Shown piece after piece: positions 6,204 through 49,399 of a stretch of 64,000 nucleotides of DNA. Both the position numbers and the translations under genes were made by a program. The first letter of the stretch is position 1. Every line of letters begins with the position of its first letter. The stretch is from NCBI GenBank assembly GCA_008632985.1, contig QPGO01000193.1:62001-126000 (forward strand). The letters are read 5' to 3'. The notes under the pieces were generated by a model that did no database searches, was not told the DNA's origin, and worked only from the letters and a program-made list of their open reading frames with translations. Source of the DNA: Psammoneis japonica. Its lineage: Eukaryota.

Positions 6204-6206
<3 letters not shown>

Positions 6207-23677: not shown

Positions 23678-26401
23678 CTATCGAATGCTCCACCGAATGC
23701 CAATCTGATCCAAGCGTTTCTCACGATCATGATCCAGTTCCCCGGCTTTTCTCACTGTGCGTTGTCTCTGCAACCACGCTCCAAGTTTCATCCCATCCAA
23801 CATGTGCCTTCTTGGAACGTCGCAATGTCCCTCGCTTTTCTTGTGTTGGACGAGGAGTCGAAACATTGCTTCCCAGTATTCAGAAGCAACATTCCAAGAA
23901 ACGCCAACGTCTTTGAGCCGTTCCTCAAGAGCACTGTTGAGCTTCCCGGCATTCCTCAAATAACGCTGCTTAGCCAACCACAATCCAAGGTTCTTTCCAT
24001 CCTCCACATGGCTGCGTCGAACGTTGCAATCCCCCTCACGTTCTTTGAATTGAACAAGAAGTCGATACATTGTTTCCCAGTTTTCTAAAGCAACATTCCA
24101 AGCAACGCGAACCTCTTTGAGACGTTCCTCAAGAACACTGTCGAGCTTCCCGGCTTTCCTCTTTTTACGCTGCGCACTTAACCATGCTCCAAGGTTCTTT
24201 CCATCCTCTTTGTGTCTTTGTGGCACGTCACAACCCCCCTCGCGTTTCTTACATTGGACGAGGAGTCGAAACATTGCTTCCCAACGTTCAGAAGGAACAT
24301 CCCAAGCAACGTCAACGTTTTTGAGCCGTTCCTCAAGAGCACTGTCGAGCTTCCCCGCTTTTCTCATTTTACGCTGCCAGCTCAGCCACACTCCAAGGTT
24401 CTTTCCATTCTCCACATGTCGTTGTGGAACATGACAATCACCTTCTCTTTCTTTATAGACCAAAAGCCATTCATGCATTCGGCCCCAATTGCTTTCACGA
24501 TTCTTGCATTCCGTGATTGCTCAATTCATGACATCGTTCTTCAACTCAAGCGGCATTGAGTCTGGGAGCATGAACGATTCAAGCACTCGAGAAGGAAATT
24601 CTACGTCATGCAAAGGCCTTCCGAGTCTGGCGCTCTCGTCAATTACAAACACGACATCCTCCCGTAATTCGGGATCCAATCCGACCATTGCATTGAGTGC
24701 CAATGTGAAAGATTCACAGCCACCTTCATCTTCCATAAATCCAGCATCACCAGTCACAGGCGAGGGCACCAAAACGCGTCCACGCTCTTTGCCAGGAGCC
24801 TTCCGGCCAACACGTCCAATCATTTGGTGCACATCAACGGTGCTTCGGACAGGATCTGCCATCACTGCCAACTCCCAATCTGCCTCGTCCACGCCAGTCA
24901 CCAATGCTCTACAATTGGCAACAATTGATTTGGTCACTCATTTTGCTCTTGACAAGATTTCTTCCCGCTTGGCAGGTGACATGTCCGAGCTGCCACCAAC
25001 TGCAAATGCGGTGATGTCGTCCTTCTCGAGAGCTGGTGCTGCGTCACGCACAAAAGCACGAGCACGGCAGTTCATGGAATGGAATGACATGGCGCTGCTC
25101 ACATTGAGTTTGTGAAAAGCCACTTGAATTGCAAATGGGAGCAGGTGGTCCTTCGAGAGTGCCGGCGGGATGGAATCATCAAGGAGTGCATCAGCAAGGA
25201 CGGCGTCGATTTCGTCGGCATCCAACACACAAAGTGTGATTGGAACGGCGATGTTTTGGTTCACGGCATCACTCAGCATCTTTTTTGCAAGGCATGGTCC
25301 AAACAGGGTCGCATTGTTAAAACTGCGGACACCAGCAGCCTTTTTGGGCTCTGAGCTTTTGCTGGGAATGAGCGTTTGCGAGCCATCCTCACAAAGCTCA
25401 CTGTCGACAATGTCAACCTGTTGTGGAGCGCCCATGTGTCAACGTGGAGTTGCAGTTAGAAACAAGCGACAGTCAACTGGGAGCCGCGAATCACAGAGAC
25501 CACACCCAGACAGTTTGCCAATCCCTTCCATCTTGTGCGCCTCATCAAATGCAGCAAACTGAGTGGCAACACCTGGCTACGACAGCGCCTCTCCAACCTT
25601 GGGCAAAGACTTGCAAGTACAGCCAATGAAGGATGAGCCGTCATTTTTGGAGGATGGAAATGCAGCAATCTCGTCAGAAGATGTTGTGCAATCCTCGGTG
25701 CGATTGGTCTGGCTCGCCACAATCAATCGCGAATGAGGCACGTGATCAAGGACTCCGAATCGATCCAAGCCATCCAGGACTTGATCAACGAGTTTCAAAG
25801 TTGGCGCAACATGTGCAGCCGATTGAAGCATTTCTCTGCTCGGACCCATTCCGTCCATGGCAAAGTTTTCGATCGACTTGAGTGCGAGTGGCGTTTTGCC
25901 CCACCCCGGCGGAAGCTGGACGTTGGCCCGGCGACCACCTTCTGCCCTTCGAGATTTCTTGTTGTTGTGAGTGTTTTTTCCACTTTTTCCTCCATCCAAC
26001 TGTGCAGGAGCTCTGCAAAAGCACTCTGCAATCGAATCTAAAATGTCATCGTGACGATCATCTTGCTGTTGACACTTGTCTCAACAATTTTCTGATGCAC
26101 TTGCACTTCCCTCTGATGCTGTTTTCTCTGCTGCTCTCAAATGATCTCCTTTTTCTCGACATCCTTTCGTCGGACGAGCTCTGTGATTGTCACATTTCTG
26201 ACTTGTGTCCTCTAGGATTGCTTCAACCCTTGCATCGACTGCTGCATCATTCAAAGCCTCAACTGCTGCATGCGCGCTTGTCTGATGCTTGGACGCTGTC
26301 GCCACTCTTGAGCGGCTTCTAAATTGTGCGGATTGAAACTGAAAAGACCCACCAAACTGTTCCAGAATCAAAACGAGGAAAATGTAGCGGCAGCTGTACA
26401 T
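23678..26401 (-). pseudogene. SF2 helicase with C-terminal HA-domain repeats, copy B (least degraded)
   Basis: QLPPGWGKT, HVAPTLKLVDQ, AAFDEAH, LTATPR-like, QMIGRVGR, then four HA repeats open from 24478 to 23678; in-frame TGA at 24938-24940 and frameshifts in the helicase part. Confidence 0.9.
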
Positions 26402-26700
26402 GGTTGTGTGCTTTCATTATTGTGATTGATGCGTTGTCCGGCAAACTGTGTGTCCCGGTGACATTGGTTGGGTGATGTGAAATCAGATGCAGGCTCGAGT
26501 GCTTCATTCTATGCGCTCTACTACCGCGCGCGCGCTACCATACAGCTCTTCGAAGTTACCCGCCAACTTTCTTGAAGAAGTTTTTGTGTGGTGGGAAAGC
26601 TCTTGATCCTCATCTTTTTTTTGGTTCTTGCCAATCCCTCTCTTATATGAAACATTTCACTCACGCCATCCTTTTATAAAGCAACGCCCATATAGCCACC

Positions 26701-27654
26701 ATGAAAGTGAAAAGCCCCCTCACAGGTTTGGAAGTGGAGGTAAAAACAGTGCGGGAACACCCTCAGTTTCCTGGAAAGCAAATTGTCGAAGACTTGAACG
26801 ATGGCTATCAATTTACCCATCCGCTCCCGACTCCGGAAGAGCTCGCCAAGGTGTATGGTGAAGATTACAACGCCATGTACGGGCGCGACCCCTCCAAGAT
26901 CCCCACCTTTGTCAAGCGTCGTGCGGTGGCTCAATTGGATTTTATTCAAAAGCACATGGGTGAGGAACGCCTTGCCAAGTGCACCACGGTCGGAGAGGCG
27001 GGCGCCGGATGGGGCGAATTGAGCCGTGTCGTGGCCGAACGTCTACCCAATGCGCGGGTCGTCACGTACGAGTTGGATCATGATTCCGTCAAGAGCATGA
27101 AGGACCTTGGATTGGATGCTCGATATGGATTGATGGAGGACGAAGAGAAGGAAGAATCCAGTTATGATATGATTATGGGCTCTCATGTTACGGAGCATTT
27201 CCTCGATCCTCGTGATTTCTATCAAAAAGTCCGTCCCCTATTGAAGCCCGACGGGTATCTCTTTATTGAAATTCCTCTTGAGAACCCAATCCCAAACCAC
27301 TGGGGAATTGTAAGCACTGAACTCGTTGTTCTTTCAAGTAGAATATTTGATACGCTCACTTGTTTCCTCATTTACGTTTTTCGCTGGTTGTTTTTTTAAT
27401 TATTACAGAACCCAGACAAACCATATTGGGTTGGCCACCTCCATTATTTTGCCGTGGGTCATTTGGAAAAGCTGTTGGAATCGTTGGATTACAAGATTTT
27501 GGCCAAGAGCTGCCATGATCACCCCTTTTCTCCTGGCGTTGCAATGCCGGGAACCCAGTTGTACGAAGTGGACAAGGTCCCCGTGGAAGAAGATTCCAAA
27601 GAGTCCACTTCAGAGTTTCCAGTCAGTCTTCGTATCTTGGCGTGCAAGAAGTAA
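26701..27654 (+). CDS. Class I SAM-dependent methyltransferase; intron 27310-27408
   Basis: 'EAGAGWG', 'YDMIMGSHVTEHFLDP', 'LLKPDGYLFIEIP'; a 99-bp GTAAGC..TTACAG intron joins in frame to 'NPDKPYWVGHLHYF'. Confidence 0.9.
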
Positions 27655-28278
27655 GACTGTTTTGCAAAAAACCCCGGCTTGATGTCGATCGCTAGTTGTG
27701 TAGTTAATTAGCAACTCATAAAGACGTCCACATTATTTTCACTTTCTGGGGCTACATTTAATCATGGTGTAGAACCAGGGCATGCTGTACTTTAGATATT
27801 CAATACTTACCTTTCACTCGTTCATCTCTAGAGTGCGGCAGATGACATAACGATGCCGTAGCGGCCTAGCAGGTGAGGGCGCTACGTAAAACTCTGCCGT
27901 ATCGGCTAGATTTAGGGCCAGCAGAGATCACTCCAAGCATTCTTTCACCACACAAGAGACTCTAGCTTGGGCTATCTCTAGTTAGAGTGGGGCCTAGAGG
28001 GATATAGCTCTGTTCTTTAGAGAGCTAAGGTTAGCTCTCTAAAGAGTGAGCTGCCACACGCAGGTGCGTCCGCGTGTAACGAGAGGACGTTGTGGACGTA
28101 CGTACGTAGGTCGCGGTTCGGTCGTGTTTGGAATCGGGAATCCGCAGTGAACAAAACAATGCGTCATTGCTCCAAAGATCTTGTGCGGTCTTCAAAATGA
28201 CCGAGAAGCGAACATCAAACCCCGTTGCGCTTTTCTGTGTCATAAGTTTTTGTGTTACGCTCTCTTCTGCTTTTGACA

Positions 28279-28728
28279 ATGATGAAGACAACGCTCGCTG
28301 TCCTTTCTACTACTGCTTTGCTTTTCTCCCGTGCCGCCCACGGTGCTCTGCCACGTCCGCACTTGGACGATGAGGCTCGTGTCAAGCAACACCGTGCCGG
28401 TGCCAATGGTGACTTGGTGGAGGGCGAGGAAGACTTGCGCAAAATCATTCTCGGTTGGCCTCATCAGGGAGACGACTATGAAATATGTCACAACTGCGAC
28501 ATTGACGAATCGAGTGGCGTACGAATCGATGAAGGAGTGGGACGTGTCATTCCCATCCCCCACGGTCAAGAATGTGGAGCCGCTCCCTGTATGGTGATGC
28601 CCGGTGCGCCCCTCGGTATCAACACGTTTCATCTTCGTGTGATTGATGAAGGAGAGGTGAGCACCTGGAGTGAGGCTCGCAACTTTAACATTGTGGACCC
28701 GGGATTTGCGTCGCACGAGGAACTCTAG
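28279..28728 (+). CDS. Small secretory-pathway protein with C-terminal HEEL (ER-retention-like)
   Basis: Signal peptide MMKTTLAVLSTTALLFSRAAHG; four Cys; ends SHEEL*. Confidence 0.75.
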   Translation: MMKTTLAVLSTTALLFSRAAHGALPRPHLDDEARVKQHRAGANGDLVEGEEDLRKIILGWPHQGDDYEICHNCDIDESSGVRIDEGVGRVIPIPHGQECGAAPCMVMPGAPLGINTFHLRVIDEGEVSTWSEARNFNIVDPGFASHEEL

Positions 28729-29525
28729 TTATTGGGCGGTGTGGCTCTGGTAGAAGTGCTTTGTAGTGAAAAACCTACAGTAAGCAGAGGGAGAACTGTA
28801 GAGAGTGTATAAGTTTATAAGGTTCTCTTAGTTGGCATCGACTCCGTTGTCTTGTGGTCTTATCGTCGTGAATAGACTGTACTGGGAAGAGTGAGTGATA
28901 TACAGGGTTATTAGAACTTTGAGTTGCTCAGAGCTCAGAACACTGAGTTGTGGATACTCCCGGCACACATATGTGTATCATGTTATAGGAGTGTACACAA
29001 TATTTCCCACCCCTCTCATAGCACTTGGACTGCTTTTGAGTTATCGCACCACTTTGATATCTCTTAGCGCACCTTGAAACCTGGAGTTAGGCTCGCCGCT
29101 TTAGAGCACGAGAATCTCTAGGTGATTTGCAGTGAAAGGCATGAGCAGAGTTAGATCTACAACAGGCCCTCTTTGTGTCGATGCTGCACTATTATCCTGC
29201 GGTCGTTTTTTGTTGCGAGTGCGCAATGGTTGATGGCATAATATGCACAGGGCGGGCGCTTTGCAGCCAAACTGAAGAAAGAAAGAATTACTATATGAAT
29301 ATCTCAACTCCAGACACACACAGAGTACTTTTCGCATTGGAAATGACAAATAGGACAGCAATAGAATAGCCAGAGAGGCCAGAGGCGAATCGCAGTAGAC
29401 AGGGAGAAACTGTGGGAAGTGTGAAAGGAGAATACGTAACGTCATGTCATATTGTCGACCAAGGATCAAGCACTCAAGCATATCATTCTTCGTCCCACCC
29501 CTTTTCGTTGTGATGATTTCGTTTA

Positions 29526-31070
29526 TTACATTCCATACATTTCATTTGTATTGTAGTCTGGTGGTGGCGGTTGCATTGGAATGTATCGTCCTGGGCCACT
29601 GCAGTACCCCAAAAAGGAATCCACCTCAAAGTTACCATTGGCGTTCGATGGCACAACTCGGGTCGCGTGTTGCAATTTCGTTTCAAAGTCTCGTCTCAAT
29701 TCAAACCACTTTTGAAACAATGCCATACACGTTGTAATGTTGGTAAGATGATTTAAACGGTATTGTTGACGTTCATCGGCAGCCTTTCGGGATGTGGCAC
29801 GGTGCATTCCCACGGTTTCTTACATGCCGTATAATGAACCGTCCTCGTTAATTCAATCGGTGTGACACGACAATCTTCACAATCGTCTTGTTTTGGGGAA
29901 TTCCATTCTTGACAAATCACCACCACGTTGTCGACAATACAAGTGCATTGTATCCTTTCGTGCGGGACCTCTCCACAAGACATCGGCCACGACTTGATTC
30001 CAACGACACGCATTCAATTCCACCGCCGTGTGGGATGCAAGACATCGTAAAAGTACGCCACAATGCCTTGATAGGCCATGGCACCCTGAAAACCACCATA
30101 ACCCATACCTCCACCCCATCCGGAACCTTCTCCTCGACCACGAATATAATTGCCCTCGCGAATCACATCCAAATACTCTCGAGGTACTTTGGATTGGGCC
30201 GTGCCACGAGAAAACCGCCTTGGACACCTTGGACCGGTTCCCATGGTTGAGACGACGTCACGTCTCGTGTAAAAAAGGCATCAATGCTTTGTAGTGGTGA
30301 TAGTGGTACAGTAGGATGCTGCAATTCCAATCGTCCACGTGCCGCCATGCCTTGAGGAGAGTGGCGGGATACAACATGGCATCAAACAAATCATCCATGG
30401 GTTGCAAGACGGCTACATCCATGTCCCAATGCACGACAATTGGATATTGAGTCAAATTGTAAGCATACAATTTGATAAATTCGGCTGATCCACAACAATT
30501 TTCACCCTCGACATGAGCTTTATACCATTCGCCTTGAATTTCATCCAATTGAACCGGCGAAGGTACAATCCATGTTTATATCCCAATCGTTCCAATACGG
30601 GTGCATGATTGGCACAATTTTCATGGACAATGGCATGCATTTGATACGAATATTTGGATTTGACGTTGGCGTGTATGGATTGTTGGTGTATGGAATGACG
30701 AAACACTGCTGCGGCATCCAAAAAACCCGTTACAGCACCGACTTTACCACATTTGATGAGTGATACGACATGACCAATTTTGATGGGAACAGATGATGAT
30801 TCTACTAGCTCGTTTTGTATGTGTTGCTCATTGTTCTCCAAAAAGGGTGACGCTTTTGTTAATAGCGGAGTAGTGTCTGCAGCAGTAATGTTTTTGTTTC
30901 CAGAAGTAGCCAGAATGTTGTTCCTCCCCAAACAAAAAGCGCAGCATGAGCGATAAATTGGTAAGAAATCCCAACAATGCAACGATCAGCAACACGTTTT
31001 TCAGCTTGGTGAGGGAAAAGCCTTGTGGTTGCTTCTGTGTATGTGTGGGACGACGACGCACCACCGTCAT
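29526..31070 (-). CDS. Glycosyltransferase family 8-like type II membrane protein, multiple frameshifts (assembly errors or pseudogene)
   Basis: N-terminal TM helix; 'FLDAAAVFRHSIH', 'CCGSAEFIKLYAYNLTQYPIVVHWDMD' (DxD), 'GVQGGFLVARP', 'QGIVAYFYD' spread over several frames. Confidence 0.75.
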
Positions 31071-31347
31071 GGTGAGTTTTGACTTGACCGATTTTTTTTG
31101 TGAGATTTCAGATCCGGGATCCGGCGAATGGGCCGAGTTATTACAATATTCATTCATTAATAGTATATTTAAATTCAACGGAGTCAACCGTTAAGATCAT
31201 TTCTATTTATAAGAATCTGAATGTTTCATTCTGGATTCGTCATCAAAATCCGATGCCGTTTTCTTCAAGAAAGACAATGGTATGATTTAGCCCCGCTTTT
31301 GCGTTTTGTTACCCGCATATGTGTGCCATAAGCTACAGGTTAACACC

Positions 31348-34300
31348 ATGAACGACCTCAATGCTAGTTCTGTTTCGATTGAGTTACCCCAGTTGAGAGG
31401 AGAACAACAGGATGATGATGCAGTAGTCGAGAATCCAACAACAACGACTCGTCTCCCACAACATTCTTATTCTCTCGAAACGAACGAAAACAGCAGCAGT
31501 GCCTTATTGTTGCAAGATCGAATTCTGGTGACATCGGCAAATCACAATATCATTCATCATTGGGGCAAATCGCCATCATTATTACCTCCCGAAATTGCAT
31601 CGTTTGATTCCGAATCGGCACATCACCATCACAAACTCATGCCACCAACACAAGATACCTTTTTCGTACAAGTCCAACTGCTGGCCGTCTTGTTACTTAC
31701 AACGCTATTGGCATGGTTTTCTGCCATGGATGCCAAGAATCATTGTCTATCACATCAAGCTTATGCTGTTTATGACATGTTGGAAGATGAAGAAACGTCA
31801 CAACAACAACAAGACGACTCGTACTTGGAACAACAAAAATCTTGCAAACAAGTTTTTCGATGGGTCATGATTCCCGTTTGTACGACAACACTTGTATTGG
31901 GGAGTGCTTGTATATTTGCCATTCAACGATATGCAAACAATACTACTACTACTAAACAAGAACAACAATCGATGGATCCACAACCACCACGTTCCGGCTC
32001 TTCACAAGTATTGCTGCTTCAAGAACAAGACAAGTGTCGTTTTTGTTGGAAACTTTTGGGTGGTGTCTTTGTTATTGCATTGGCCTGGTCTTACGGCATC
32101 GTTTCCGTCATGCTTTGGCCACGATACTTTTTCATGCAAAACAACAATAACAAAAACAATCCCTATCAAAGTTTGGCAGCCGTGGATGTTTTGGGACATG
32201 TCAGTGACAATGCCAATTTGTACTATACAAGTTGGTTGGGTGTTTGTTTATCGATTGCACTCGTCTATCAAGCATCCATGCATTTGTTGCGTCAAACACG
32301 ACAATTGGCCGTCCTCTCCAAACAACAAGAACAATGCTCGACACAACACGACGCTTCTTCTTCTAATTTTTCTCTTTATGAAAATGTGGAAACCATGTTG
32401 TCTTCGGTTTCGGCATCCATCCAGGATTACAAAACCTATCGTCAATCACGTGCGACGTGGTACAATTCATTTACAAGCTGAGAAAACGAACCGGAATCTG
32501 GATTGCTGCATCCTTGGCAACCATTGTCGTATTGGCATCGTCTATTCATATATACCATCAAGTGCTCTATCCGACGGCTGTATCCATCTTTATGGAGCAA
32601 CGACAAGAACAAAACAACAACGACAACAACAATGATGACGCAGTCGTGTCGGTACCACATGGATTGCGCAATGTGTGTTCCATATTGCACGCCGAGGGAC
32701 CACAATACGGGGTACCCTCTGAAATGTGTATCCGTACCAGTTATTCTTTTTGTTCTGCCGCCATTGCAACCTTTTTACAATTACTCGCTATTGTTTTGCA
32801 TTGGTTGGCACGACACGATGCCGCCGACGTGGTGGACGTCGAGCAACAACAACAACAGTCATCGACGACGACTTCTGCCGGATCCATAATGATGCAAATG
32901 TATTATTACAATCTCGAAAGAGCAGGACCAGAAGAAATCATTCGTCATCATTTTCGTGGTGCCAATAAGCATATTCCACTCAAATTTGAATTTGTGCTGA
33001 GTGTCCTTTTATCCAATCTGTTGGGATTGAATGCGGTCTGTTGTACAAGTGTACAAGGACCGGCAGCCAAGGTTGGTAACTTGTATTATGCGAGTTGGGT
33101 TAGTTTCTTGTTGTGTTTGAGAATATGCTTGGGGTGTTTGGAAGAATTGTACCATATCGAGGATGAAGACGAATTGACTCGAAAGGAAAAGCGACGACTC
33201 AAAAAACGACGAAATGTCGAGCAAAGAACCACAATGCGAGGTGATGGTGTCCATGATGACGATGCAAACGGGACAAGTTCCGACGTTACCCCAATGTCAC
33301 AACAACAAGAGTCACTTTCATCTAAACTTAACCCTTCCTTATTGGAAGAAGCAGAAGCTACAATGTATCCTCATTTGGTTCTTCAAGACACACCGACAAC
33401 CATTGCCGTAAACACTCGAATGGACAAGAATAAGCATGAATCGTTTACTTGGCGGGATTTTGGAGAAACAAAGCGTGCCAATCGTTTACGGGTCTACTTC
33501 TTTTTGGGTATTTTCTCTACCGTTTGTGTTTGTGCGGCAATGGATTCTGTAAGTATATTACATCATTCTTCAAAATGCTTGATAAACCCCAAAATATACG
33601 CAGCTCAACTCTTGTTTTTGCGTGACTCTTTAGGCATCCAACACGTCGGACGCTCTCACGAGAGCTCAGAAAGCCATGATTATTCTTCCGTCAGTAGTAT
33701 CCGCCTTGTCGATTGCTCAATTCCTTCTGTGCTTGCACTCCATCAGCTATGTGATTGTTTCTAGTTTACAAGTCGGCGGTGTTCTCTCCGTCGTGACCTG
33801 CGGCTTGTGTCTGATTGACTTGGTCTTGACCATGCACTCGGATTCGTCATGGGCGGTGAATGCTATCGGGGACATTGAAATGGCAAACCTCTACTACTTT
33901 ACATGGGCTTCCATCTTGACGGCTGGTATCCAAATGGCATCCTATACCAAGGACAAGTTAGAATCCGTGATTTTTGGTGACCAACCAAAGGATCTCATGG
34001 TTGTCGTTTGGATCGTTGTCATTAAGGTTTGCTTTGTCATTATTTGTGCAGGATTGCACGTGTGGAACACCATATCCGACACTTGTGGGATTGATGAATT
34101 GCAATCGGGTGCAGTCACCTTTTGCTCCCGTACCGTCTTTTCGATCCTTGTCGGATTGACTGGAATCGTTGTGGCATCTCTCGCGGTGGTCATTCGACTG
34201 CTGCAGCTGTTGTGTTTGAGACAGCAATGTTGCTGCGACAGCCACCATGGCGTTTGTTGTTCCAGGCGACTCTGTACGCGTGTTGAAGTACTTGCTTCCT

Positions 34301-34566
34301 TGTTTCTGGTTGCTCTCTTTGGAGTCGCACTGTGTATTATTACGGGTATTGGTGGTCCGGGACAAAGTGTCGGTGACATGTACTACGCAACGTGGCTTGC
34401 TTTTGTTGTTTCCATTGGCGTCGGAGTAAGTTGCTATGGCCAAATCAAACAACAAGGCCAGGTGGATACCACAGCTACACTCGCCGACAGAGACAACCCG
34501 GAATCCTCAATGGCATCGAGCAGAAAATCGAAAAGATTCGAAACACCATTTGTTTCGATGGAGTGA
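31348..34566 (+). CDS. Large multi-pass membrane protein with repeated (G/A)NLYYxxW modules; frameshift ~32470; intron 33549-33633
   Basis: ANLYYTSW, GNLYYASW, ANLYYFTW and GDMYYATW each follow hydrophobic helices; an 85-bp GTAAGT..TTTAG intron keeps frame. Confidence 0.8.
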
Positions 34567-34995
34567 CCGTGTAAGAGTTACGGTTTGGATTGCGCCGTTT
34601 TTCCACGTGAAGGGTAAGCAAAATAAACAATGTGAATTTTTCTTTACAAATACAATCTTACTGTTGCATAGGTCATCATGGTGTCGCAGTTGTAAACCTA
34701 GTGTTAGGCTGCACCCTGACACAACTTGCTTTTGCCGCAGCTACTGGCCTTCTGCTTCGAGCACACGGTATCGAGTACAACCGAATGATGTCCCAAAGCT
34801 GGTAGAACGCAAGCATGAACAGAAATTTGCCCATTGGTCATTTCACTACTCATCGTTTCAAGGGAGGTGGCAAAACCAACGAAGCGATTGATGCGCTTCA
34901 TTCTTGCACATGCTGGAGAGCTGTTGTGGAATACTCGCACTAGCTATCAAGAAGGGACTGTTGGGCACTGTAACTTTGTCATGGTAATCTTTAAA

Positions 34996-37100
34996 TTACT
35001 TCAAGATAAATGGCGAAGTTACATAGAGACTCTTTCCATTAGGTTGGTTGATCTTGAACTCGACTGCATAGCATCCAGCACCTCCAAGCTCATTCACCGG
35101 GTCTTCAATGTCGAACACCCACCTTCCCGTTTTCTTGCTAAGTCGCATCGTCCCACCACGCAAGCCGGTGTCCTCCGTTGTGAGGTTGCCTTCAATTTTT
35201 AGAATTCGCACCAACTCGGCCTCACTTCCATTCAACACCAGAGTGTCTTTTTCACTTGCCAAGCTGTCCGTGCAGTCCTTTAATTTTATCTTTAACCTCA
35301 GATTTCTCTTTTTTGTGGTATCGAATGCTTTCCGTTCCAATGGTGATCTGGAAGGGCAGAAAACGCCTTTGATTTTGCTTGGTGATGTACGAAAGTTCAT
35401 TTTACCCATTGGCTTCATGGTTCTAATGACATGGGCATCGCGTTGATCAGCATTCGGAATTGCGGGGCAGTTGTCACACGCATCTCCTACACCGTCCTCG
35501 TCTTTGTCGGCCTGATCGGCATTGGGAACCAAGAGGCAGTTGTCCGTGTCATCAGGAACGCCGTCGCCATCGATGTCACGGTGGCCGTCTGTGTCTACCG
35601 TCAAATCCAACTCCCAAAGCCCAAGGCGGGAATCTGCATCCTTTCCTTGGAAATAGATCTTTCCACCCATTTCCGTCCCTTTCCTGGCATCACGTACTAT
35701 TCCGTTTTTCACTTCGTTTACCTCCTCAACAAGTCTAGTTGTGTTTGCCACGGGATCGTGTACCCAAAGCTTGCTTGGCTGTTTCCATGTTACTTGATTG
35801 AAAAACAACTTTCCGTTTATGGCTACGAAGCAGCATAGGTTTTGGTTCTTTTCGAGGCCGAAGTCCCATAACGTCTGAGTAGTGTTACTCATGGGGTTGT
35901 ACACTAAAAGCAAAGATCCAGGGTAGTCGGCGAAAAAAAGCTTGCCATCCAGTGGAGTTATGTTTTCTCCAGCAACTTCACCTCCAGGTACTTCATGAGT
36001 TGCGTTGGTGATGGGATTGTGCGCCCAAAGCGTCCGTCGGTGGAAGTCCCGTTGTACAACCGCGCGGCTGCCTACTATAGCTTTGTAATAGAGCACACCG
36101 TCCATTGCTATCAAAACCTTGGAATACGTTTCCAATTCATCACCGGAAAAGCTTACCAGCACCCGAGTTTTGCCGGTGTTGGGGTCATACTCAGAGAACA
36201 CGTCGCCGAAAACTGAGCCACCTACTCGTCCTATTGGGCCGGTTTTGAAATATACCTTTCCATCCATCATTGCGATTGAATTATGGAATGCAATGTCAAA
36301 TACGACTTCCGTTCTGCCTGTGTCTGCATCATGCACATAAGTTCCGAAAAGGCCAGCTCTGAAGGCAAATAAATTTCCCTCGGCTTTCAAAAAATTGAAA
36401 TTCTTGTATTCTCCCAAATTCTTCTTTTCCAAACTCACTGGGTCGTACACAAAAAGCGTACTTACTCGTCGGGCTGCTATTGTGGTGAAATACAACTTTC
36501 CATNTTCTTGCATTCTCCCAAATTCTTCTTTTCCAAACTCACTGGGTCGTACACAAAAAGCGTGCTTACTCGTCGGGCTGCTATTGTGGTGAAATGCAAC
36601 TTTCCATTGGATGGTGTCAATGTGGCTAGACGGTTGCCGGGATCATCCGCTAACATTTGAGTTGTGTTGAGAGATGGATCATATACCCAGAGCTTTTTCC
36701 CGGCAGTGTAGCACAGTTTTCCATCCAGTGCCTTGACGTCGAAGCATTCTGCATTCCTTGTCTCTATCGCCTTCACCGTTTCAGTTGTCTTTTTCAAAGG
36801 ATCATGCACCCAGATCTTTTTGTCATTAAAGAAAAACAACTTTCCACCCAACGGCGCAATACGAGGCGTCCTCCTCTTTCGGATTGCCGCACTGACGAGA
36901 GCTTGAATGAGACAGCTGACGTTTGGCCAAATGATTATGGTCATTGTCCTCGTTTTGGGGGGAATTTTGGTTTGGCTGTTCATGCAGGGTGGAAAGGAGG
37001 CGATTCTTTTCGTTGTTGTGACCATTTTTTACAGTGCTGCTGGCGGAAAAGCCGATGACGAAACATGGCAAAACGAGGAACAGCGCACAAGGCCAACGCG
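34996..37100 (-). CDS. Secreted beta-propeller-repeat protein with thrombospondin type-3 Ca-binding repeats; 5' part disrupted and crosses a scaffold N
   Basis: Repeated 'GKL(F/Y)F...LW(V/A)(Y/H)(D/N)P'; '[37 protein letters not shown]'; hydrophobic leader '[15 protein letters not shown]' in another frame near 37050-37097. Confidence 0.75.
36401..36607. other. 103-bp duplicated contig overlap flanking a single N (36504)
   Basis: 36401-36503 equals 36505-36607 except for three substitutions. Confidence 0.9.
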
Positions 37101-37455
37101 TGGCACTTCTTCTTGTTCTGCGGTGCGAGATCTAGCTTGTGCGAAATATAATAACGAGAATTGCCTGATCGAGTGCGGTGAAGACAACCGTCATGTCGAT
37201 CTTTTATTCAGTTCCTCGAATCTTTCGATCAGTTTCAAAGTTATGGCATCCTCGAATCGCTCTGACGGAATTTGTGCGCGCTGAGGATATGTCGTCCGCA
37301 GACATTTGCTTGTGTCCAAAATGACATATGACTCTAAGAAATGTCGAAGGCGCGTACTCGACAAAAGTGTCAACATTTTGAACCTCTCGCTCAATGGCAA
37401 TGCATTTTTCTACTCGAGAAAGGCCAAAGGAACGCAATAACTGCGACTACCAACG

Positions 37456-37778
37456 ATGAGAACAACTTTTAGCTTACCTCTTCTTTTCCTTCTTTGTAGC
37501 ATGGCAGTGGCGGTCGATGCCAAAGGTTCATGCTGCGTCATGGGAGAAGGTTGTCTCATTATCTCTGAAGATCCTGCCGGTCTCGTACAGGAATCTTTGT
37601 TGGATCTGATGAGTGCATCAGAGGCACATGCCCAAATATGGGTGCGTGTTGCACGATGACAAGTGGCGTGGCATGTAGGATGACTGACATGACAACATGT
37701 GAAAATATAAGCGGCGACTTCCAAGGCTTCGGATCGATGTGTGACCCCGGTTTGTGTCCGACTGCGCCGTTCTACTAA
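37456..37778 (+). CDS. Small secreted Cys-rich protein with two G(S/A)CC repeats; 1-bp frameshift ~37571
   Basis: Signal peptide, then 'GSCCVMGEGCLIISE' / 'SCRSRTGIFVGSDECIRGTCPNMGACCTMTSGVACRMTDMTTCENISGDFQGFGSMCDPGLCPTAPFY*'. Confidence 0.7.
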
Positions 37779-38515
37779 CGATTGCGGCAACGATATCGAG
37801 CTCAATGTGGACGCAAAGCTGTCATGCTTGACTCAATAGATGTCAGTGTTGGAGACAAGAACCCAGTTTCACGTTTTTAATCGTTGGATCTACGCAGTGT
37901 ACAACATTCAACAGTTGGTTTCGACAATCGCTGAATAATTCTTATTACTCTTAGATAAGCTATTGCAAGCTCTAGAGTTCCCTACCTTTCCGGTAATGAT
38001 TTTTCATATGTTCTTGTAGGGACTATAGACTCCCCATATGCTGAAATCACAGCAAGTGCACTTTGTTGAAACAGTCCAAGCGCTGGAAGAGGGGAGGGAA
38101 AATCGGAAAAGCTGGCACCAAGTGAAAAAAGAACAAGCGCCCCGTCATCCTTCCTACTAATATCACAATGGGCTCCTCTTGAGATGGGGTCGGGTGCGTG
38201 CTCAGTTGATAAGATTTCCGAAGCGATTAAAACTTTGTATCGTCAAGTGTGTACATCACATTCCCTCATGACAGCTGTCGATGTATTCTTTGCCATCCAT
38301 CATTCAACAGCTGCTTCTTTCCTGAAGGATATGTAGCATGCTACTTCGCTACTGGAGTTCGGAGCGTTACCGGTCAATCAGAAAATCAATCAGTTATTGT
38401 TTCGAGCTGGCGAAGACTTGTGATATTATCGTGAGTCTTCTGCATACTTGTTGAGGTTGAAATCGACACCTCCTACAGGATGTGCGTATTTTCTTCGAAT
38501 CTTCTACAAAGTGGC

Positions 38516-40231
38516 TCAAGTATCTAAACTTCGCTTGGTTCGGAATGACCGTTCTGTCTTCTTGTCGTTTGCATGACGATTGAATTCGATACCGGCAATG
38601 AACCCATTTCGAATAGCTGCCGTGTTGGCTTGCGCGTCTCCACTGCCAAGGTACAAGCGAAACATGGCGTTACACAAGGTCTCGTCACGGACCGTGTAGG
38701 TTCCGTGTGGCGACGTGACAATCAACATGTTTTTCTTGTTGCACAGAATCGAAATCTCGCTTCCCTTTGCAAGGATCGTCCCAGGCGGTAGCAGCGCCAT
38801 CATTAACTGTTCCAAAGCAAGGTACGCCTCATTATGAGTCGCATCATTCAAATCCAGCACTTGCTTGCTATTGAGTAAGAGCGCCGACGAAAAGCCCATT
38901 GATTTAACTTGACGGTGAAACTTTAGCACCATGGCTTTTCGTCGTGATCGGGATTGAATAAAATTGTCGATAAAGGCATTTCTGGCCTCCGTTGAGTTAT
39001 TCTCTTGCTGATAGAGCTTTTCTAGCATTGATTTCAGTTTTGGGCGTTCTCTGGCATGAACATAGAGTGCGACAGAATAAACGGTGATGGATCCAAACGG
39101 ACCACCGCCAACAAAGGACAAAAGTCCGTTTGCCGTGGTTGGAAACGTTAAACCGTGAATGACGTTTGACGATGTGTAAGCTTTTTGTTGAGTGCCATTA
39201 CCAATCGTGGAAAAGGTGTGATTCTTCGCCCATTTCAAATTGCTTGATACCGTTTCCTTGGCTGCCGTTGCGTTTGTTAGTGATTTTGGAATAGAATTGA
39301 CAAGAGAACTGGCCGTTGTGGATATGGATGACGAGTTATTCGTGAGAAAGGACAGCGATGCGACTTGGGCCTTGGTCCAATTCAAATTTGCATTCAAATT
39401 TTTCCTAGCTGCCGATACTAGACGTAGTAAGGAACCACCACTTTCACCACTCGTTCGCGCGGTTTCTTCCATGACGTGCATTGCATCTTTTCGTCGTTTT
39501 CTCTCGCTTCGTCTCGTATAACTCGACTTGGTGTCGGTGCTATTCCTTAGCGCTGTATCCAAGGTGGAGTTTCTGCCGGACCTTGATACCTTTTGTTTTG
39601 CTCTTTTGGATACGCGAAGCAGCCGATTTCCCATTGTACTCGCCAACTGGCGCGTCTTGCTTGCAATTGTCGACGCGAACGAAGCAGAAGTTGCATTCGA
39701 TGAAATGTTCTGCGCAAATACCGCTCGATTCACGTTTCTGTGCTGCACCACCCAATTCATACTTGTCGCGGCTCCACTCTTTGTAGATTTCCATACACTT
39801 GTTGTGGAGTTGACAAAAACACCAATGGATTTCGGCATGCCCTTGTGCAAGTAGAATGGCCGCACCACAAACAGGACAAACATACCAATCATGCAAGAAA
39901 CGAGTACAAGTTTCCATTCGTTCTCGATTTCCGGTTTTTCTTTTGTTATTCTCGGTGGCGTGTCGACTCTTTCATGATTGTCGAAATTTTCTATTCGATC
40001 TTCTTGAAGTTGAGGTGCGACAACCACAGTATGATTCTCGCTTGCAACAGCCAGCGATTTCTTGGTTTCTTCAACAACAGGTTCCTGAGCTTCGACGCAA
40101 TCATTGCTTACAACGATTTCTCTCCGCGACTCCTCTGCAACGGCAAGTATAATCGTAAGGACAAACAGATCATTGTATCAGATAAAAAAAGTTTGTATTC
40201 ATAAGCACGTACGTGTATCATTGCTGCTCAT
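38516..40231 (-). CDS. Membrane-anchored protein with C-terminal chalcone-isomerase-like fold; intron 40135-40212
   Basis: Exon 1 MSSNDT spliced (GTACGT..TTGCAG) in frame to the 503-aa ORF; one TM helix; 'ITVYSVALYV' and 'LCNAMFRLYLG' resemble CHI-fold proteins. Confidence 0.7.
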
Positions 40232-40891
40232 CTTCTCGGTTGGTTTTGTGAACCAGCGAAAAAGATCGGTGTCAAAGATACTATGACGTTCAACAGTCAC
40301 AGTGCGTTGTTGTTCCTGGCCAGACATTGTCTACTTAAAAATCTTGTATCGTATAGAGATGGAATGCTTCAATGATAAGAATCTACTGTTCACTGTTACC
40401 AGAAAGAAGTTGGATGTTATGGATAAAAGTTCATCGTCGCATCGCCGAAAATTCAAGCAACACGAGAAACGAGAAAAAAGCAAACGAGCTCTTTTGCGAA
40501 CAGTACGAGCTCTGCTTCGCGATTACAGCCGCCGCCGCTCTGCTGACCATTCGATGTTTATTCTCTCTCCTTCACTTCGCTTTCTTCCATCTTGTTATAG
40601 AAAGCAGTCTTAAAAGCACCTTTGCAATCATTCGCCATTCGCCTTTGTGCAACCTCCTGTAGCACACTCTGATTGTGCCATGCAATGCTTGTGCGGATGC
40701 AGGCCAGTTGTGCGAGTGAGTCGGGAGTCACAGCAAGATCCGCGACCGCGATTCCCGAATCACGACTCGCAACCTAAGCAACTCGCGACCTATGCTTGGA
40801 ACGAACCCCATTCCTGCTTGCTGCTTGGCGTGACCTCACAATTTCCTGCTCATGCAACTGGTCGCTGTGCAAAGTTCATGAACGAGTTAAC

Positions 40892-42586
40892 ATGATGAAG
40901 CGAAACAGTCATAAAATCAAAAAGAAAGTAAAAAAGAGCCTACCTTTCCTTCTAGCTTGCGTCAAAATGATCCGTCCGACGACCCATGCTGTGGATGAGA
41001 GTCCGACAAAACGCATTGAGGCCATTCGATATGCGCAAGTTGGTAAAACAGTCTGCATCTATGGCTTTTACTTTTCATCCTTGTATCTATTGATGAAACA
41101 GGTTATACAAAATGGTGTATTCTGGATACTGATTTGTATTCCTATTTTAATCACCGTGATAGCAGCATTTGCGCTACTGGCCCTTGTGCTTTCAACAGTT
41201 CTCTTCACCAATCCCAAGAAACCATGGTCTGCGGCTGGTGATCTCACTTCCAATTTTTCTTGGGACGGGAAACGTCCTCTTCGTATTACATTTATTACCT
41301 GGGGTTCGCGCGGGGATGTGCAACCGAACGTTTCCTTGGGATTGGAGCTTGCCAGACGTGGTCATACCGTGAGGGTGATGGGAATGGAGTGCTTTCGTTC
41401 ATGTATTGATTGCCATCCCGAACTAGAGTACATCCCCATGGAAGACGACTACATGTTCAAACTCGGGTCAGAATTAAACGAGCCACAAAATCGAGACAAG
41501 CTTCCAGCAATATGTGCCAAATTTGTTGGTTTGTCATTTCGGGTTTATGTCTCTCAATACATCAAAGCTGCCGAGGATTCTGACATTATCATCGGGCAGA
41601 ACATACCAATATGCAACCTCGCTCATCTTACTGTTTCTCAGGTGGTGAAGAAGCCCATCTTCTTTGTTACACATGATGCCATGAATAGCATGCCGAACAC
41701 TACATATTCTTATGATCCTTCAACCAACCGAGTCAAAGATTATGGATGGCTTATGAACATCATTAATACGCGAGCGCTTCCATTGATTGTGGGAGCAATG
41801 GCCACAATGTCGCCTTGGTCTGATGTGAGACGTTATCGTCGTGAATTGGGACTTTCTACTCCTTGGCCATTTATGGAGCTGCTTGGACCAAGAATAGTCT
41901 CTTCGATTCCGACCTTTGCCACATGGGATCCATCATTGTGGCCACGACCAAAGGACTTCTCGTCGCACTGGATTAGCACCGGTTTCTTCGTTACCAAGTC
42001 GAGTTGCGTCCATGATGAGGAAGGAGTTTTGGAATGGTTGAAAAAGCGAAGCAAGGATGCACCAGGACGAAGAACAATCTACGCAGCTTTGGGTTCTTTT
42101 GGCCACCATGACAAGACGTTCTATACCGACATGCTGCTGGATGCATCACAGAAACTTGGCTTGGATGTGGTGACTCTCAGCTCAAGTGTAGACAATCGAC
42201 CCATGCCGGCTAACGTCTTTGTTGCCAAGAATGTTCCACAAGACAAAGTCTTCCCCCAGTGTGATTTCATTGTGCACCATGGGGGAGCCGGTACGGCTTC
42301 GCAGGTGATTCGATCAGGGAAGCCGGGTGTCTGCATTCCGGCAATGCATTTCCAAGAAACATGGGGTGCTCGTCTCAAAGAGTATGGGGCTGGTGTTATG
42401 ATAACTCAGACAGAACTCGAGGCAGCTTATCAAACCCGCTCTACCAACCTACTGCTCGAAGCTTTCGAAGCAGCAATGCAACCCAAGATTAGGGAAAAAG
42501 CTGAATGCCTTGGAGAAGCCGCCCGCCAAGCTGGTGGAGTCGAGCTTGCCGCGGATAAGATTTTTGAATACCTCAACGACTCATGA
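40892..42586 (+). CDS. UDP-glycosyltransferase (GT1, sterol glucosyltransferase-like); start uncertain
   Basis: 'ITWGSRGDVQP..LGLELARRGHTV', 'VPQDKVFP', 'VHHGGAGT', 'FQETWG'. Confidence 0.9.
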   Translation: MMKRNSHKIKKKVKKSLPFLLACVKMIRPTTHAVDESPTKRIEAIRYAQVGKTVCIYGFYFSSLYLLMKQVIQNGVFWILICIPILITVIAAFALLALVLSTVLFTNPKKPWSAAGDLTSNFSWDGKRPLRITFITWGSRGDVQPNVSLGLELARRGHTVRVMGMECFRSCIDCHPELEYIPMEDDYMFKLGSELNEPQNRDKLPAICAKFVGLSFRVYVSQYIKAAEDSDIIIGQNIPICNLAHLTVSQVVKKPIFFVTHDAMNSMPNTTYSYDPSTNRVKDYGWLMNIINTRALPLIVGAMATMSPWSDVRRYRRELGLSTPWPFMELLGPRIVSSIPTFATWDPSLWPRPKDFSSHWISTGFFVTKSSCVHDEEGVLEWLKKRSKDAPGRRTIYAALGSFGHHDKTFYTDMLLDASQKLGLDVVTLSSSVDNRPMPANVFVAKNVPQDKVFPQCDFIVHHGGAGTASQVIRSGKPGVCIPAMHFQETWGARLKEYGAGVMITQTELEAAYQTRSTNLLLEAFEAAMQPKIREKAECLGEAARQAGGVELAADKIFEYLNDS

Positions 42587-42779
42587 CACTACTAGAGAAT
42601 AATGCGAATGTAAGATATGCACATTTACGTGGGAGTTCATTAGCACACCAAAGAAAAAGCCTATTGACATATTCTGTTAAGCCCTACGACAACCTCCAAC
42701 GAGCTGCAACGTCGATTGAGTAGCTTCCAACGAAGGGAGTTCTTATGTTACACAACTTGCATAACTTAAATGTGGGTTC

Positions 42780-44700
42780 TGAGCAAAACAAATTGCAACG
42801 GAATGCAGCAGACGCATCTGGAAGAGAGGCAGGGAGTGCTTTGGATGTGATCATGATGGATGAGATGGACCATGTAACAGAAGAAACGGTGTCTTGCTGA
42901 CAGGTGCGAGGGCTTCTTTTGTGCCTTCTTTGACAGAGCGTGGATCTTGATTGTCGTGCTGTGTCTCACAGCGCTGTACAATGAGAAAGGAATCATTTGG
43001 AGATGGGATCTGGGGCAAGTCAGATGGTCCCAGGCTTTGCTTTGTGCAAAGGGGCACAACCTCTTTGACACCTGTCACAACACTGGCCTTCCACTTTCTG
43101 GCTGATTGCATGGACTGTCTGGCTTTCATGTCATTGAGAGCAGCCTCCACCTGTCAAGTTCTCCATGTCATGAAAGTGGATCCTTGAAGCATTTAGATGG
43201 ACCTTTGGGCCAGACCAATTGCACAGGAGCTTTCGCCAGTGCTGACCTCATTGGCAAAATCAGAAATTGCTTTTTTTGCCTTCTCAATTGATGCCACAGC
43301 TTTTTTCAGTCTGCCAAGCAGGGCAGCCACCACACATGCTTTCATTGCCAGTCAAATGCTTTGAATCCAAAATCTTCTTTCTGGCTTGATTGGCAACAAT
43401 GTTGCAGAATGACAAGTGGCTAAAATGAGCCTGCAATCCCAGAGCTGCATTCTTTGGGGCAACAGGTGATGTTGACATTGCCTGTCACACAGTTGCGCTG
43501 GACAGAGCAAGACATCCCTGCTTGCCCTCTGCAAGGAGGAACCCAACACCCCAGAGCTGCACTCTTTGGGGCAACAGGTGACGTTGACATTGCCTGTCAC
43601 ACAATTGTGCTGGACAGAGCAAGACATCCCTGCTTGCCCTCTGCAAAGAACCCAACATGACCATGGCCTTCAGCAGTGCCACCCTTGCAAAACAGCTGGC
43701 AATCTTTGCACACCATTGTTGTCACCATTTCCAGCCAAGTCACTGCTGGTCAGCCTGCCCTCCTCTGACTGAGGCACCCTCTGTGGTGCATTGTTGGACA
43801 GAAGAGCCTCCACTCATTTTGCCAATGAGGCCACCAACATGGTTGCCATTTCTGGCAACACTGCTCCCAGGAAAGAACAGCAAGATGCCGCACACTGGCA
43901 TGACTCTGCATCACAGGCACCCAGCGGAGCATGCTGGTTTGAGGCTTTGCACTTGCTGCCATCCCCAGCAGCAATGACTTGGTTTTCCTTGCACTTTGCT
44001 GCAGCTTGCAAAAACATTTTTTCCACGCCTTGGCTGCCTCCAATGGCTGGCCATCATGAACGAACCAATGCATGCTCCAAATCATCATCTCCGTGAACTT
44101 CATTTGCAAGTGCCGCTCTGTTGTTCTGTTGTTGCACTGCATGTCTTCCATCTTGATGTGGACCCTCCTTTCAGTGGGGCAACACACCTTCAAATCTTGG
44201 CCAGCCAGCGTCGCAGCTGCGACCCGCTTCTTGGTTGACCGGCCGCCCGCCCTTTCACTTGGGAGCACCCCGTCACTTGGAGGAAGAACCACTTCTGTTG
44301 CCTGCTGCTGCTGCTGCAGATTGTGATGCTCTTGTTCTTTTGCCACTCAAAGTCAAAGTTGACAAGCCGTTTCTCTGTGAAGTTGGGTGTCTTGTCACCC
44401 ATGATCGGCAGCCCGCTCCTCAGCAGTGGAGCGATTGCCAACTTGTTGTTGTTGCTTGTCACATTGTGTTGTTGTTGCACAGCTTTCTGTTTGCTTGTTG
44501 TGCTCAGTGCTCGCGTCAGTTTGAATTTGTTGGTTAGGGGGGAAACTGCCAGAGTTGCGTTGACGCCCAGAACGACCATCACGCATCAATCATCACCTCA
44601 GATGCCTCCAGCGACTGCATGCACGCGCCACGTGAAACAATTGCGCGCCATTCCCGATGAGGAAATGCGCGGGAAACTAACACGTCATCGAACTCACGTC
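42780..44700. repeat. TpA-depleted degenerate repeat domain (unclassified)
   Basis: Abrupt loss of TA between two normal genes; contains a 112-bp tandem duplication. Confidence 0.8.
43438..43657. repeat. Tandem duplication, 112-bp period
   Basis: CCCAGAGCTGCA..CTTTGGGGCAACAGGTGA..ACCCAACA starts at 43438 and 43550. Confidence 0.9.
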
Positions 44701-44795
44701 AACAATTTGTCAACCATCACTGCCCAATAACCAACTTGTCGATCTTGTATTACCAACAAGGGCGTCGATGCATCAGCTTTGTTAGTCTTTGCACC

Positions 44796-45474
44796 ATGTC
44801 GCATTCACAGAAATTGAAAGAATCACTTCCAAAACTTGTTCAGCAGTTCCAAATTCATTGTTTGAAAAAGGGCGCCAACCAAGGAAAGTTTCCCATTTTA
44901 TCGGCATCACGACACGATCGAATTTTTGAAAAGTATCCCAATTATACCAAACGGCATGCGGCAGTGTTGGTTCCGTTACTCTTTGTTGAGGATGAACCGC
45001 ACGTACTCTTTACGGTTCGAGCCTCCAATCTCAACACACACGCCTCTGAGATTTCCTTTCCAGGGGGGACATTATGACGAGGGACACGACTCGAGTCTAG
45101 TCGAAACAGCTCTTCGAGAAACACGAGAAGAATTGTTATTGGATGAGCAAGAGCCAATTACAGTTTTAGGAATGGCAACAGCAGTGCCAAGCGTAAAGGG
45201 AGTTCCCGTTACTCCAGTTTTGGGTGTCTTGGAGCGCAACATTTCACCTCATGAATTGTGGAAGGGAAATCCACAAGAAGTAACAAGGGTGTTTGTTGTT
45301 TCGATAACTCAATTACTAGATACAGAAACATCGGAGCCATTGAAACGGTTGGGCGACAAGAATGGGCCCGTGTTTCCTAGTCCACACGGCAAGATTTGGG
45401 GCTTGACGGCGTTTGTTTTGAGACCCATTCTGCACAAGATTTTCAAACCAGTCTTTCAATCGCAAGAGCAATGA
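44796..45474 (+). CDS. Nudix hydrolase, CoA pyrophosphatase (NUDT7/NUDT8-like); +1 G in homopolymer ~45065
   Basis: 'AAVLVPL', 'TVRASNLNTHASEISFPGG', then 'DSSLVETALRETREE' and 'IWGLTA'; removing one G from a G6 run restores the frame. Confidence 0.85.
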
Positions 45475-45753
45475 TATATATGGAGTTAGAGGAGAGAGAA
45501 ACAACAGCGCAGAAGATGTGGCAACGTCTATTTATTTCCGTGATTGGTCCGAAGGGGGTTTCCGGAATCACTCTCTAGAGGAGCTCGAAGTAACTGCAAC
45601 GGCCTGCAGCGATGAGCATTTTGAATTATGCAAAAGATCCAAAGCATGCCTTCAATGCATGCTTGGTCTTGATATGACGGTGTATTGAAACGAAAATGTA
45701 AAAATGCAGACAGAAAGAGGCATCCGGTGCTCTGATATGGAAAGTGTGGCGAT

Positions 45754-47122
45754 TCACTGATGAATCGCGTAGGGGTTCGAGCCACAGATGCAAAGGCTAT
45801 CGAGTTGCTCCGCCAATGTAATAAGCTTGCCCTTGGCCTTTTCTGGTGACGGAAAGGAGTCGTAGGATACGTCCTGCTTTGCAGGCGATTGCTCTTGAAC
45901 GATCGAGGGGTCACCTTCAACCTTGTGGAACGACTCTTGCTCCTGCAAAGCTTTTGGAGTTTTTTTGTTGGAATGTCGGCGACGAGAATTGGTTCTGGAG
46001 CGTTTCGGGGTCTGATACATGGTTTCAGAAGCAACAATTGAGACATCGTCTGAAGATTGAGAAACGTCAAGAGGAGCTGGTTTGCGGTGTGGCTGGCTGC
46101 CGCGGTTCTTGGGTTTACTCCTGCCGCGTGCTTCACCTGCACGCCCCAGTTCATGTTGTTTCGACACGCCAAATTGATATTGGAAACCCGGCCGTGCTAG
46201 TGATGATGTTTCGTCGTTTCGGAGTCTTGACGTGGGTATCTCTTGATTGCGTTCCGTCCGTAAGGCCGTTTCCTTGAGAGCATCCCAAACAGCTTCTTGA
46301 GGGACTAGCGCTGATTCGGACACCATTCCGCAGAGGTCAGAAGGTGCAATACGAGACAAATCAATAGCCGACTCAACCAACTTCTTGGCGAAAGCTTTTC
46401 GTTGCTTGTCTCTGGGAACGATGGGGTGCCCACTCGACGCTATTATGGAGCTGTGATTGACCCAAACCTGAACAGCTCGAAACACTGTAATCTCCTCGCA
46501 ATTCAAGTGTTTGTCGCTTACGACAAGTTCAAGTGCCGGCGGACTCAACAAGAAAACCCCTGGTGATTGATAGTCTTGTGTTTGCTGCAACAAGGCCATA
46601 TCTGGATCCGATCGGATTGCATCCATAGCCAGACGCTGAATACGTAGTCTCGGATTTGCCGGTAGCTACCGTCTCGTCTAGAATAGCGCACGCCCACAAT
46701 AAGTTGCCGTGTTCCCACAATACCTTCGTGATCATATCGCATGCTAGTTCTTGCAATTTTGGTAACTGAAATGCTTTTGCGCAATCAAACAAGTGTACCA
46801 CGTGCCGTACAGAAACATCGTCTCGTGTCGCGGTGCGCGAGAATTCAGCAATATCGTTGGTACCGCAAAATTCCACCATGGCCCGAATCACCACACCAGA
46901 ATATGGAATACGCGTCTTTTGTTTGGTACGATACAGCAACTGCTGCAAGACTTGTGATCGTGCTCCCAACACAAATCGCAACGCTGGTACTTGATCTCCA
47001 TCACTCGCGACGAGCACAACGTCTGTCATTTGACTGCTATTAGCATGCGCCAACAAATCAAACGCCAGTGTCGTGTCGTGATGTGCAAGATGTTCATCAT
47101 ATGGCCGGCGGCGGTGAACCAT
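45754..47122 (-). CDS. BTB/POZ-BACK domain protein; frameshift ~46635
   Basis: 'TDVVLVASDGDQVPALRFVLGARSQVLQQLL'; second frame 'LNCEEITVFRAVQVWV', 'IDLSRIAPSDL'. Confidence 0.8.
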
Positions 47123-49356: not shown

Positions 49357-49399
49357 AGACTTGTCAAGACTCATTTTTTTATGCAAGAATCCTTCAAAC

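Follow-up and report, generated by a model that had tools for sequence, protein, structure and literature searches.

Hypermutation of TpA to TpG or CpA hits integrated giant-virus, virophage and transposon-like DNA in the chlorarachniophyte Bigelowiella natans, and an ADAT2-like adenosine deaminase has been proposed to act there (Mettrop et al., bioRxiv 10.64898/2026.01.13.699255). In the literature we found no report of a TpA-erasing process besides that of B. natans, and none for diatoms. Here we describe a 64,000-nucleotide (nt) stretch of contig QPGO01000193.1 (the window; positions are counted from its first letter), probably from a diatom. It contains eleven blocks nearly free of TpA, as well as a scaffold joint inside a gene of blade repeats and thrombospondin type 3 (TSP3) repeats. 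A first-pass annotation of the joint had reported two versions of the same 103 bp that differ only at TpA sites, and had proposed that two alleles or recent paralogues were joined, one of them at an early stage of TpA mutation. The finding of greater interest is the TpA purge itself, beyond the coordinates of this overlap.

At a step of 500 nt, normal DNA with a TpA observed/expected ratio (o/e) of ~0.4 to 0.9 repeatedly gives way, along the window, to sharp-edged blocks holding 0 to 2 TpA per 500 nt. The eleven blocks (Table 1) amount to 26,000 of the 64,000 nt (41%) and hold 68 TpA in total, at a pooled o/e of 0.04. In the pooled blocks CpA (1.74) and TpG (1.78) are symmetric across the strands, the other non-CpG dinucleotides lie between 0.86 and 1.27, and CpG is at 0.31. 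Judged by this composition, the blocks are the footprint of TpA-to-CpA/TpG hypermutation. CpG o/e ranges from 0.12 to 0.78 between blocks: some lie at 0.12 to 0.2, and those at 7001-8500 and 24751-26250 reach 0.66 to 0.78 with equally few TpA. CpG loss is a separate matter, and the earlier proposal of a TpA-removing process independent of it holds for this window. That the process reaches beyond transposable elements had also been proposed, and here the helicase-associated (HA)-domain gene array, a sequence not recognisably transposon, is partly purged: in the zones of the HA arrays TpA o/e steps down from ~0.4 to 0.1 with normal CpG. As to the nature of the purged blocks, 99 frames of at least 110 codons were compared with Pfam, of which 96 matched no family and three matched HA; no transposon or virus domain was recognised among them.

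Survival of TpA in the blocks followed a clear flank rule. Relative to normal DNA (26501-42500, 44751-49500 and 51501-56000), it was 0.006 at RTAY (R, purine; Y, pyrimidine), 0.031 where the flanks were mixed and 0.257 at YTAR. An A-to-G change that acts independently on each strand at 5'-TAY-3' fits these values, as it predicts 0.039 for mixed flanks. YTGY products were gained more than YCAY in three of four mixed contexts, and in the duplicated copies described below four of the six informative mixed-flank sites follow the rule, although these sites are few.

The window holds several internal repeats. In a segmental duplication with an offset of ~12.6 kb, positions 1274-4933 resemble 13806-16611 (95.6% identity) and 10459-13730 resemble 23739-26406 (86% identity), with an inverted third copy at 50261-51196. 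Double differences, with CA in one copy and TG in the other, number 15 and 41 between the duplicated copies and 30 and 27 against the inverted copy; so many of them indicate that, once the duplication had taken place, each copy was hit independently at the same ancestral dinucleotide. Elsewhere, a tandem array of ~16 or more 42-nt units (60178-61107) lies within a 629-codon plus-strand frame (59565-61451) that matches no Pfam family. Direct repeats of 218 nt (58319-58536 and 61579-61796, 93% identical) flank this array, all in TpA-poor DNA. TpA-purged DNA also contains a 105-nt inverted repeat, whose arms (8047-8151 and 8215-8319) are separated by 63 nt and are 86% complementary, and two tandem 100-nt copies (43438-43537 and 43550-43649, 95% identical).

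Like the B. natans process as its preprint describes it, the process seen here turns TpA into TpG or CpA on both strands and leaves clusters poor in TpA and rich in CpA/TpG, and the differences at the overlap are of the same type. The purge is far deeper here, with a TpA o/e of 0.04 versus a Rho of 0.45 for the nucleocytoplasmic large DNA virus region of B. natans. We also see a strong preference for RTAY over YTAR, whereas the main text of the preprint treats neither the 3' neighbour nor diatoms (its supplements may hold context tables). The organism is probably a diatom (Stramenopiles) in place of a chlorarachniophyte, and the overlap lies in an expressed-looking, single-copy host gene and not in foreign DNA.

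Two better-known systems invite comparison. In repeat-induced point mutation (RIP) of fungi, as here, dinucleotide-specific transitions ruin repeated DNA; RIP can leak into neighbouring unique sequence and leaves a CpA/TpA imbalance, and here too numerous independent hits separate the duplicated blocks. In ascomycetes, RIP acts on cytosine, depends on duplication and makes TpA from CpA, which is the opposite direction, TpA being destroyed here. We rejected RIP as the cause: its C-to-T change at CpA would give an excess of TpA, and the repeats here are almost without it. The relatives of the organism that carry names are, moreover, diatoms. ADAR is a metazoan RNA enzyme with a 3' preference for G. 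The purge resembles ADAR hyper-editing, which has a 5' U preference, in that both strands of repeats undergo A-to-G change where a T/U precedes the A, an analogy that the B. natans preprint also draws (10.64898/2026.01.13.699255). Unlike ADAR, the process here prefers a 3' pyrimidine and its changes are fixed in DNA, with many independent hits in the duplicated copies.

The joint is marked by the sole N of the 64-kb window, at 36504. The 103 nt to its left (36401-36503) and to its right (36505-36607) are identical at 100 of 103 places, and no other overlap length between 15 and 399 nt around the N fits. The copies differ at 36407 T versus 36511 C (TGTAT left, TGCAT right), 36460 A versus 36564 G (GTACT, GTGCT) and 36492 A versus 36596 G (ATACA, ATGCA). 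All three differences, then, fall on a TpA and are transitions between T/A and C/G: where the left copy reads TA, the right copy has CA, TG and TG in turn. Of six TpA in the left copy the right copy keeps three, and each copy has four CpG. Read on the minus strand, the differences amount to GEYK/GECK, GKLYF/GKLHF and a silent AGT/AGC. Recomparison of the copies found the three differences exactly as the first-pass annotation gave them, in coordinates and codon readings, and the shared CpGs that it called intact stand at matching places in four of four cases. The variable sites are all RTAY (GTAT, GTAC and ATAC), which makes three of the overlap's four RTAY sites; its two mixed-flank TpA are the same in both copies.

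With the duplication in place, the minus strand of the gene reads as two overlapping, out-of-register frames of 548 and 183 codons. The Pfam family TSP_3 matches the gene with E = 3.6e-9. A HMMER search with the blade part (320 residues) returned 1932 matches among 1.84 billion representatives, the best at 36% identity; with all 1932 at or below that value, none was an orthologue usable as an outgroup. Homologues of the left-contig protein were mostly found through the TSP3 repeats, which dominate: among the 120 matches listed, nearly all cover 8 to 18% of the query and one covers 40%. No second copy of the gene lies within the 64-kb window, and nothing in metagenome_contigs matched a 52-nt stretch of the overlap that is invariant between the copies. 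The right-hand frame contains both KLCYTAG and IWVHDP, which had been singled out as departures from the sister repeats. This holds for KLCY, whose C departs from the aromatic consensus (the GKL-Y/H-F position is aromatic in eight of nine blades of allele A). IWVHDP is no exception: four of nine blades have H at this position, and three of the four belong to the left contig.

We examined three runs of one sample (X1 to X3) as Logan contigs aligned to 26500-46499 (20 kb). X1 is possibly the data behind the window's own assembly, in which case the assembler is independent and the data may be shared. In the 20 kb, 135 places distinguish the contigs of this single sample from the window, and one variant joint has a depth of 23.3, about half that of its neighbours. 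Because 135 differences and a half-depth joint occur in one sample, the sample is probably heterozygous, apparently as a diploid, and the window would be a mosaic of two haplotypes. Over the 20 kb, the X1 differences comprise 81 transitions and 41 transversions, and window-to-contig changes are balanced (42 A/T to G/C versus 39 G/C to A/T). The allelic spectrum rests on the 40 of the 135 differing places that were listed, within 26500-33000. Differences between TA and CA/TG make up 12 of these 40 places and 12 of the 26 listed transitions, with 7.1 expected from composition (P = 0.03). Their polarity is mixed: five have TA in the window and seven have CA/TG, and three TA-type differences inside 27 nt at 30432-30459 are themselves of mixed polarity. 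Their flank classes (RTAY 4, mixed 7, YTAR 1) mirror availability, and six of the seven mixed-flank differences follow TAY/TGY (checked by hand).

The same contigs gave some further observations. X2, whose record reads "DNA?", has contigs that lack two segments with GT..AG borders, of 85 and 58 nt, at 33548-33634 and 34612-34671, where an X1 contig retains both. X2 word depth reaches 1296 over the glycosyltransferase gene at 40944-42606. The skips and the high depth are as expected if X2 were cDNA. An X2 contig also spans 34963-36317 of the blade-repeat gene. Inside the overlap, one X1 contig matches the window up to 36527 and continues with at least 255 unlike letters, the first 30 of them without TpA. 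Nowhere in the window do these 30 letters find a match, even with three mismatches allowed. The sequence past 36527 may come from an insertion present on one haplotype, in which case leakage of the mutator would come back into consideration, or from a branch in the assembly graph. Loose ends of this kind were seen in at least six X1 rows in the 20 kb, plus four further rows for which the run is not given.

A contig from the separate X1 assembly bridges the joint with a single copy of the overlap. This contig (record 4, 4070 nt) covers 32508-36400 and then 36505-36681, so that its joint skips 104 nt; the junction fits both sides for only 6 letters past the joint. It differs from the window at three letters within 36505-36681 and appears to carry the right-copy C at 36511. 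Deleting 104 nt from the window (one copy plus the N) yields a single open frame of 643 codons with either version. The 103-nt duplication is an assembly artefact and not biological, and it probably sets two alleles of one gene side by side. We consider it probable that these are two alleles of a single-copy gene that stayed unmerged at the joint, and that the three differences are ordinary heterozygous transitions. In the assembler's output the left contig would stop within allele A and the right contig start within allele B, the two ends being left unmerged because they differ at three places, and the scaffolder would then have placed one N between them. A single N is what some scaffolders insert where an overlap could not be resolved. 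The outcome would be a small "false heterotype duplication" that gives the gene a false frameshift. The alternative, recent paralogues from two loci or a true 104-nt tandem duplication, is barely credible: apart from the assembly text itself nothing speaks for it, the separately built contig has one copy only, and the two copies sit exactly at both contig ends next to the only N. A tandem insertion of 104 nt would also frameshift an otherwise open frame of 643 codons, and the word depth of the bridging contig (56.4) is like that of its neighbours (47.7 to 65.1), word depth not being the same as copy number. We therefore rejected both forms on the one-copy contig, the frame break and the contig-end position. 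Of the two origins offered by the first-pass annotation, joined alleles agree with the single copy, the closing frame and the 135 differing places in 20 kb; recent paralogues have no support, the depth showing no sign of two loci. False heterotype duplications with gaps between the copies have been described as a class of assembly artefact (Ko et al. 2022, PMC9516828). The joint shares with the cases in that account two haplotype versions in series, a gap between them, heterozygous differences and a false gene defect. Those cases span kb to Mb, unlike the plain unmerged contig overlap of 103 nt with a 1-N gap found here.

Three changes placed anywhere in the 103 nt would all fall on its 12 TpA letters with P = 0.0012. 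Measured against the local spectrum (12/40), three of three has P = 0.027, or P = 0.007 if the same polarity is included, for a single selected case. The three-of-three TpA pattern is real and mildly improbable, with n = 3. The values against the local spectrum weigh against ordinary heterozygous transitions between two alleles, and so do several other observations. All three differences fall in RTAY, the most susceptible class. Their density (3 in 86 nt) is ~5 times the 20-kb average. At the GKL-Y/H-F site, the eight aromatic blades of nine suggest that TA is ancestral and CA derived. The part of the gene on the right contig has a TpA o/e of 0.32, within the lowest 3.9% of 233 windows, and the X1 contig that departs at 36527 into TpA-free letters could mark a structural variant of one allele. 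Finally, no X1 contig aligned to the left copy at 36401-36503 (by depth arithmetic, 47.6 = 56.4 x 563/667), so that allele A is seen in the window only. This last point would suit the idea that one version is wrong sequence at a weak contig end and that the sample has one version only, the ends being the least supported part of short-read contigs. But contigs drop variants, so the missing left copy proves nothing; three random errors would all be TpA transitions with P of ~0.001, and real variants are plentiful in the same sample. We regard such an error as very improbable. Another explanation, also unlikely though less so, refines the first-pass reading: the CA/TG copy would be an allele that underwent a local burst of the 5'-TAY-3' A-to-G mutator, through off-target action or through leakage from a mutated insertion on that haplotype only. 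On this view the defence process would be at work today and could harm a single-copy host gene that is expressed. In its favour, each of the three differences falls on TpA, with the same polarity and at RTAY, which is purged to 0.006 survival in the blocks, and the Y-to-H change points to TA as the ancestral state. The nearby TA-type polymorphisms (12 versus 7.1 expected, in the 40 of 135 places listed), with six of seven mixed-flank cases following TAY/TGY, and the 30 TpA-free letters past 36527 also agree with it. The B. natans process, moreover, is described as active in culture (10.64898/2026.01.13.699255).

Against such a burst stands, besides the number of sites (three), the behaviour of the right contig past the overlap. 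At 36608-37028, RTAY/(RTAY + products) has a normal value of 0.19, which ranks at the 21st percentile among 221 windows, and three of nine TpA are RTAY, compared with 32% in normal DNA. The right contig therefore has no regional excess of TpA changes: RTAY is retained at this normal ratio, and the o/e of 0.32 is not specific to a flank class. Nor is the target foreign or repeated DNA, being an open-frame blade-repeat/TSP3 gene with no second copy in the window and no extra depth. The closest purged blocks in the assembly are at least 6 kb off. Polarity is mixed in the nearby cluster at 30432-30459, and the background flank classes mirror availability. Loose ends like that at 36527 are frequent, its 30 letters have no match in the window, and the bridging contig stays colinear although it apparently has the C allele. 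As to polarity, Y (TA) is favoured by the blade consensus at one site, the second site has no consensus and the difference at the third leaves the protein unchanged. With relatives at 36% identity or less, ancestry can be assigned at no more than one of these sites. The three differences belong to a class that is common between alleles here and are too few to show that one allele was targeted. The data thus do not establish the first-pass view of one allele at an early stage of TpA mutation, with RTAY kept at a normal ratio on the right contig and nearby polarity mixed (5/7). Ordinary heterozygous transitions between two alleles leave room for a contribution from the mutator: the class of single-nucleotide polymorphisms (SNPs) that set TA against CA/TG is probably inflated by TpA-directed A-to-G change, and the three sites may owe something to it.

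The features are collected in Table 1. A neighbouring gene encodes an MFS transporter with 62 relatives at E <= 1e-10; five of these are named, all from diatoms, at 34 to 40% identity. None of the window's proteins matched itself in the large protein collection, and Protein Atlas offered no clue to taxonomy; the organism is therefore probably a diatom whose annotated genome is absent from that collection, and it is not B. natans. Rfam and tRNA scans of the window gave no matches.

Table 1. Features of the 64,000-nt window
Feature	Position	Strand	Basis or remark
Blade-repeat/TSP3 gene, one gene of ~643 codons: nine G-K-L-aromatic / W-V-Y/H-D-P blade repeats, then thrombospondin type 3 repeats	34996..37025	-	Frames, Pfam
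Best-scoring thrombospondin type 3 repeat stretch, residues 331-353 of the left-contig frame	35443..35511	-	Pfam; coordinates converted from residues
Left contig, last 103 nt (allele A); TA at 36407-8, 36459-60 and 36491-2	36401..36503	.	6 TpA, 4 CpG
Single N, joint of two contigs with overlapping ends	36504..36504	.	Only N in window; X1 contig joins 36400 to 36505
Right contig, first 103 nt (allele B); CA at 36511-2, TG at 36563-4 and 36595-6	36505..36607	.	Direct comparison of copies
TpA-purged blocks (eleven in all)	1-2750, 3251-6750, 7001-8500, 12251-16500, 16751-21500, 24751-26250	.	TpA o/e
TpA-purged blocks, remainder of the eleven	43001-44500, 49751-51500, 56251-59000, 60751-61500, 61751-62750	.	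TpA o/e
HA (helicase-associated, PF03457) repeat arrays; one with a 280-codon open frame	11013-12178 and 23681-24520	-	E = 2.3e-34 and 2.7e-60

The joint serves as a warning: it leaves a gene falsely frameshifted, and counts of "paralogues" that differ at TpA in the assembly must first drop such joints. A TpA-erasing process, printed so far only for B. natans, has purged 41% of this probable-diatom stretch, following a clear flank rule and independently of CpG loss. Should heterozygous diatoms show its signature in their allelic differences, phased SNPs classified by NTAN context could test activity, targeting and host-gene damage without a mutation-accumulation experiment. The more far-reaching reading, which we offer as tentative and rather doubtful, is that a 5'-TAY-3' A-to-G DNA mutator has recently left the three differences on a single allele of a diatom gene that is expressed and present in one copy. 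If true, TpA hypermutation would be active today in a second eukaryotic supergroup and would stray onto host genes, and it would be recorded allele by allele in heterozygous diatoms.

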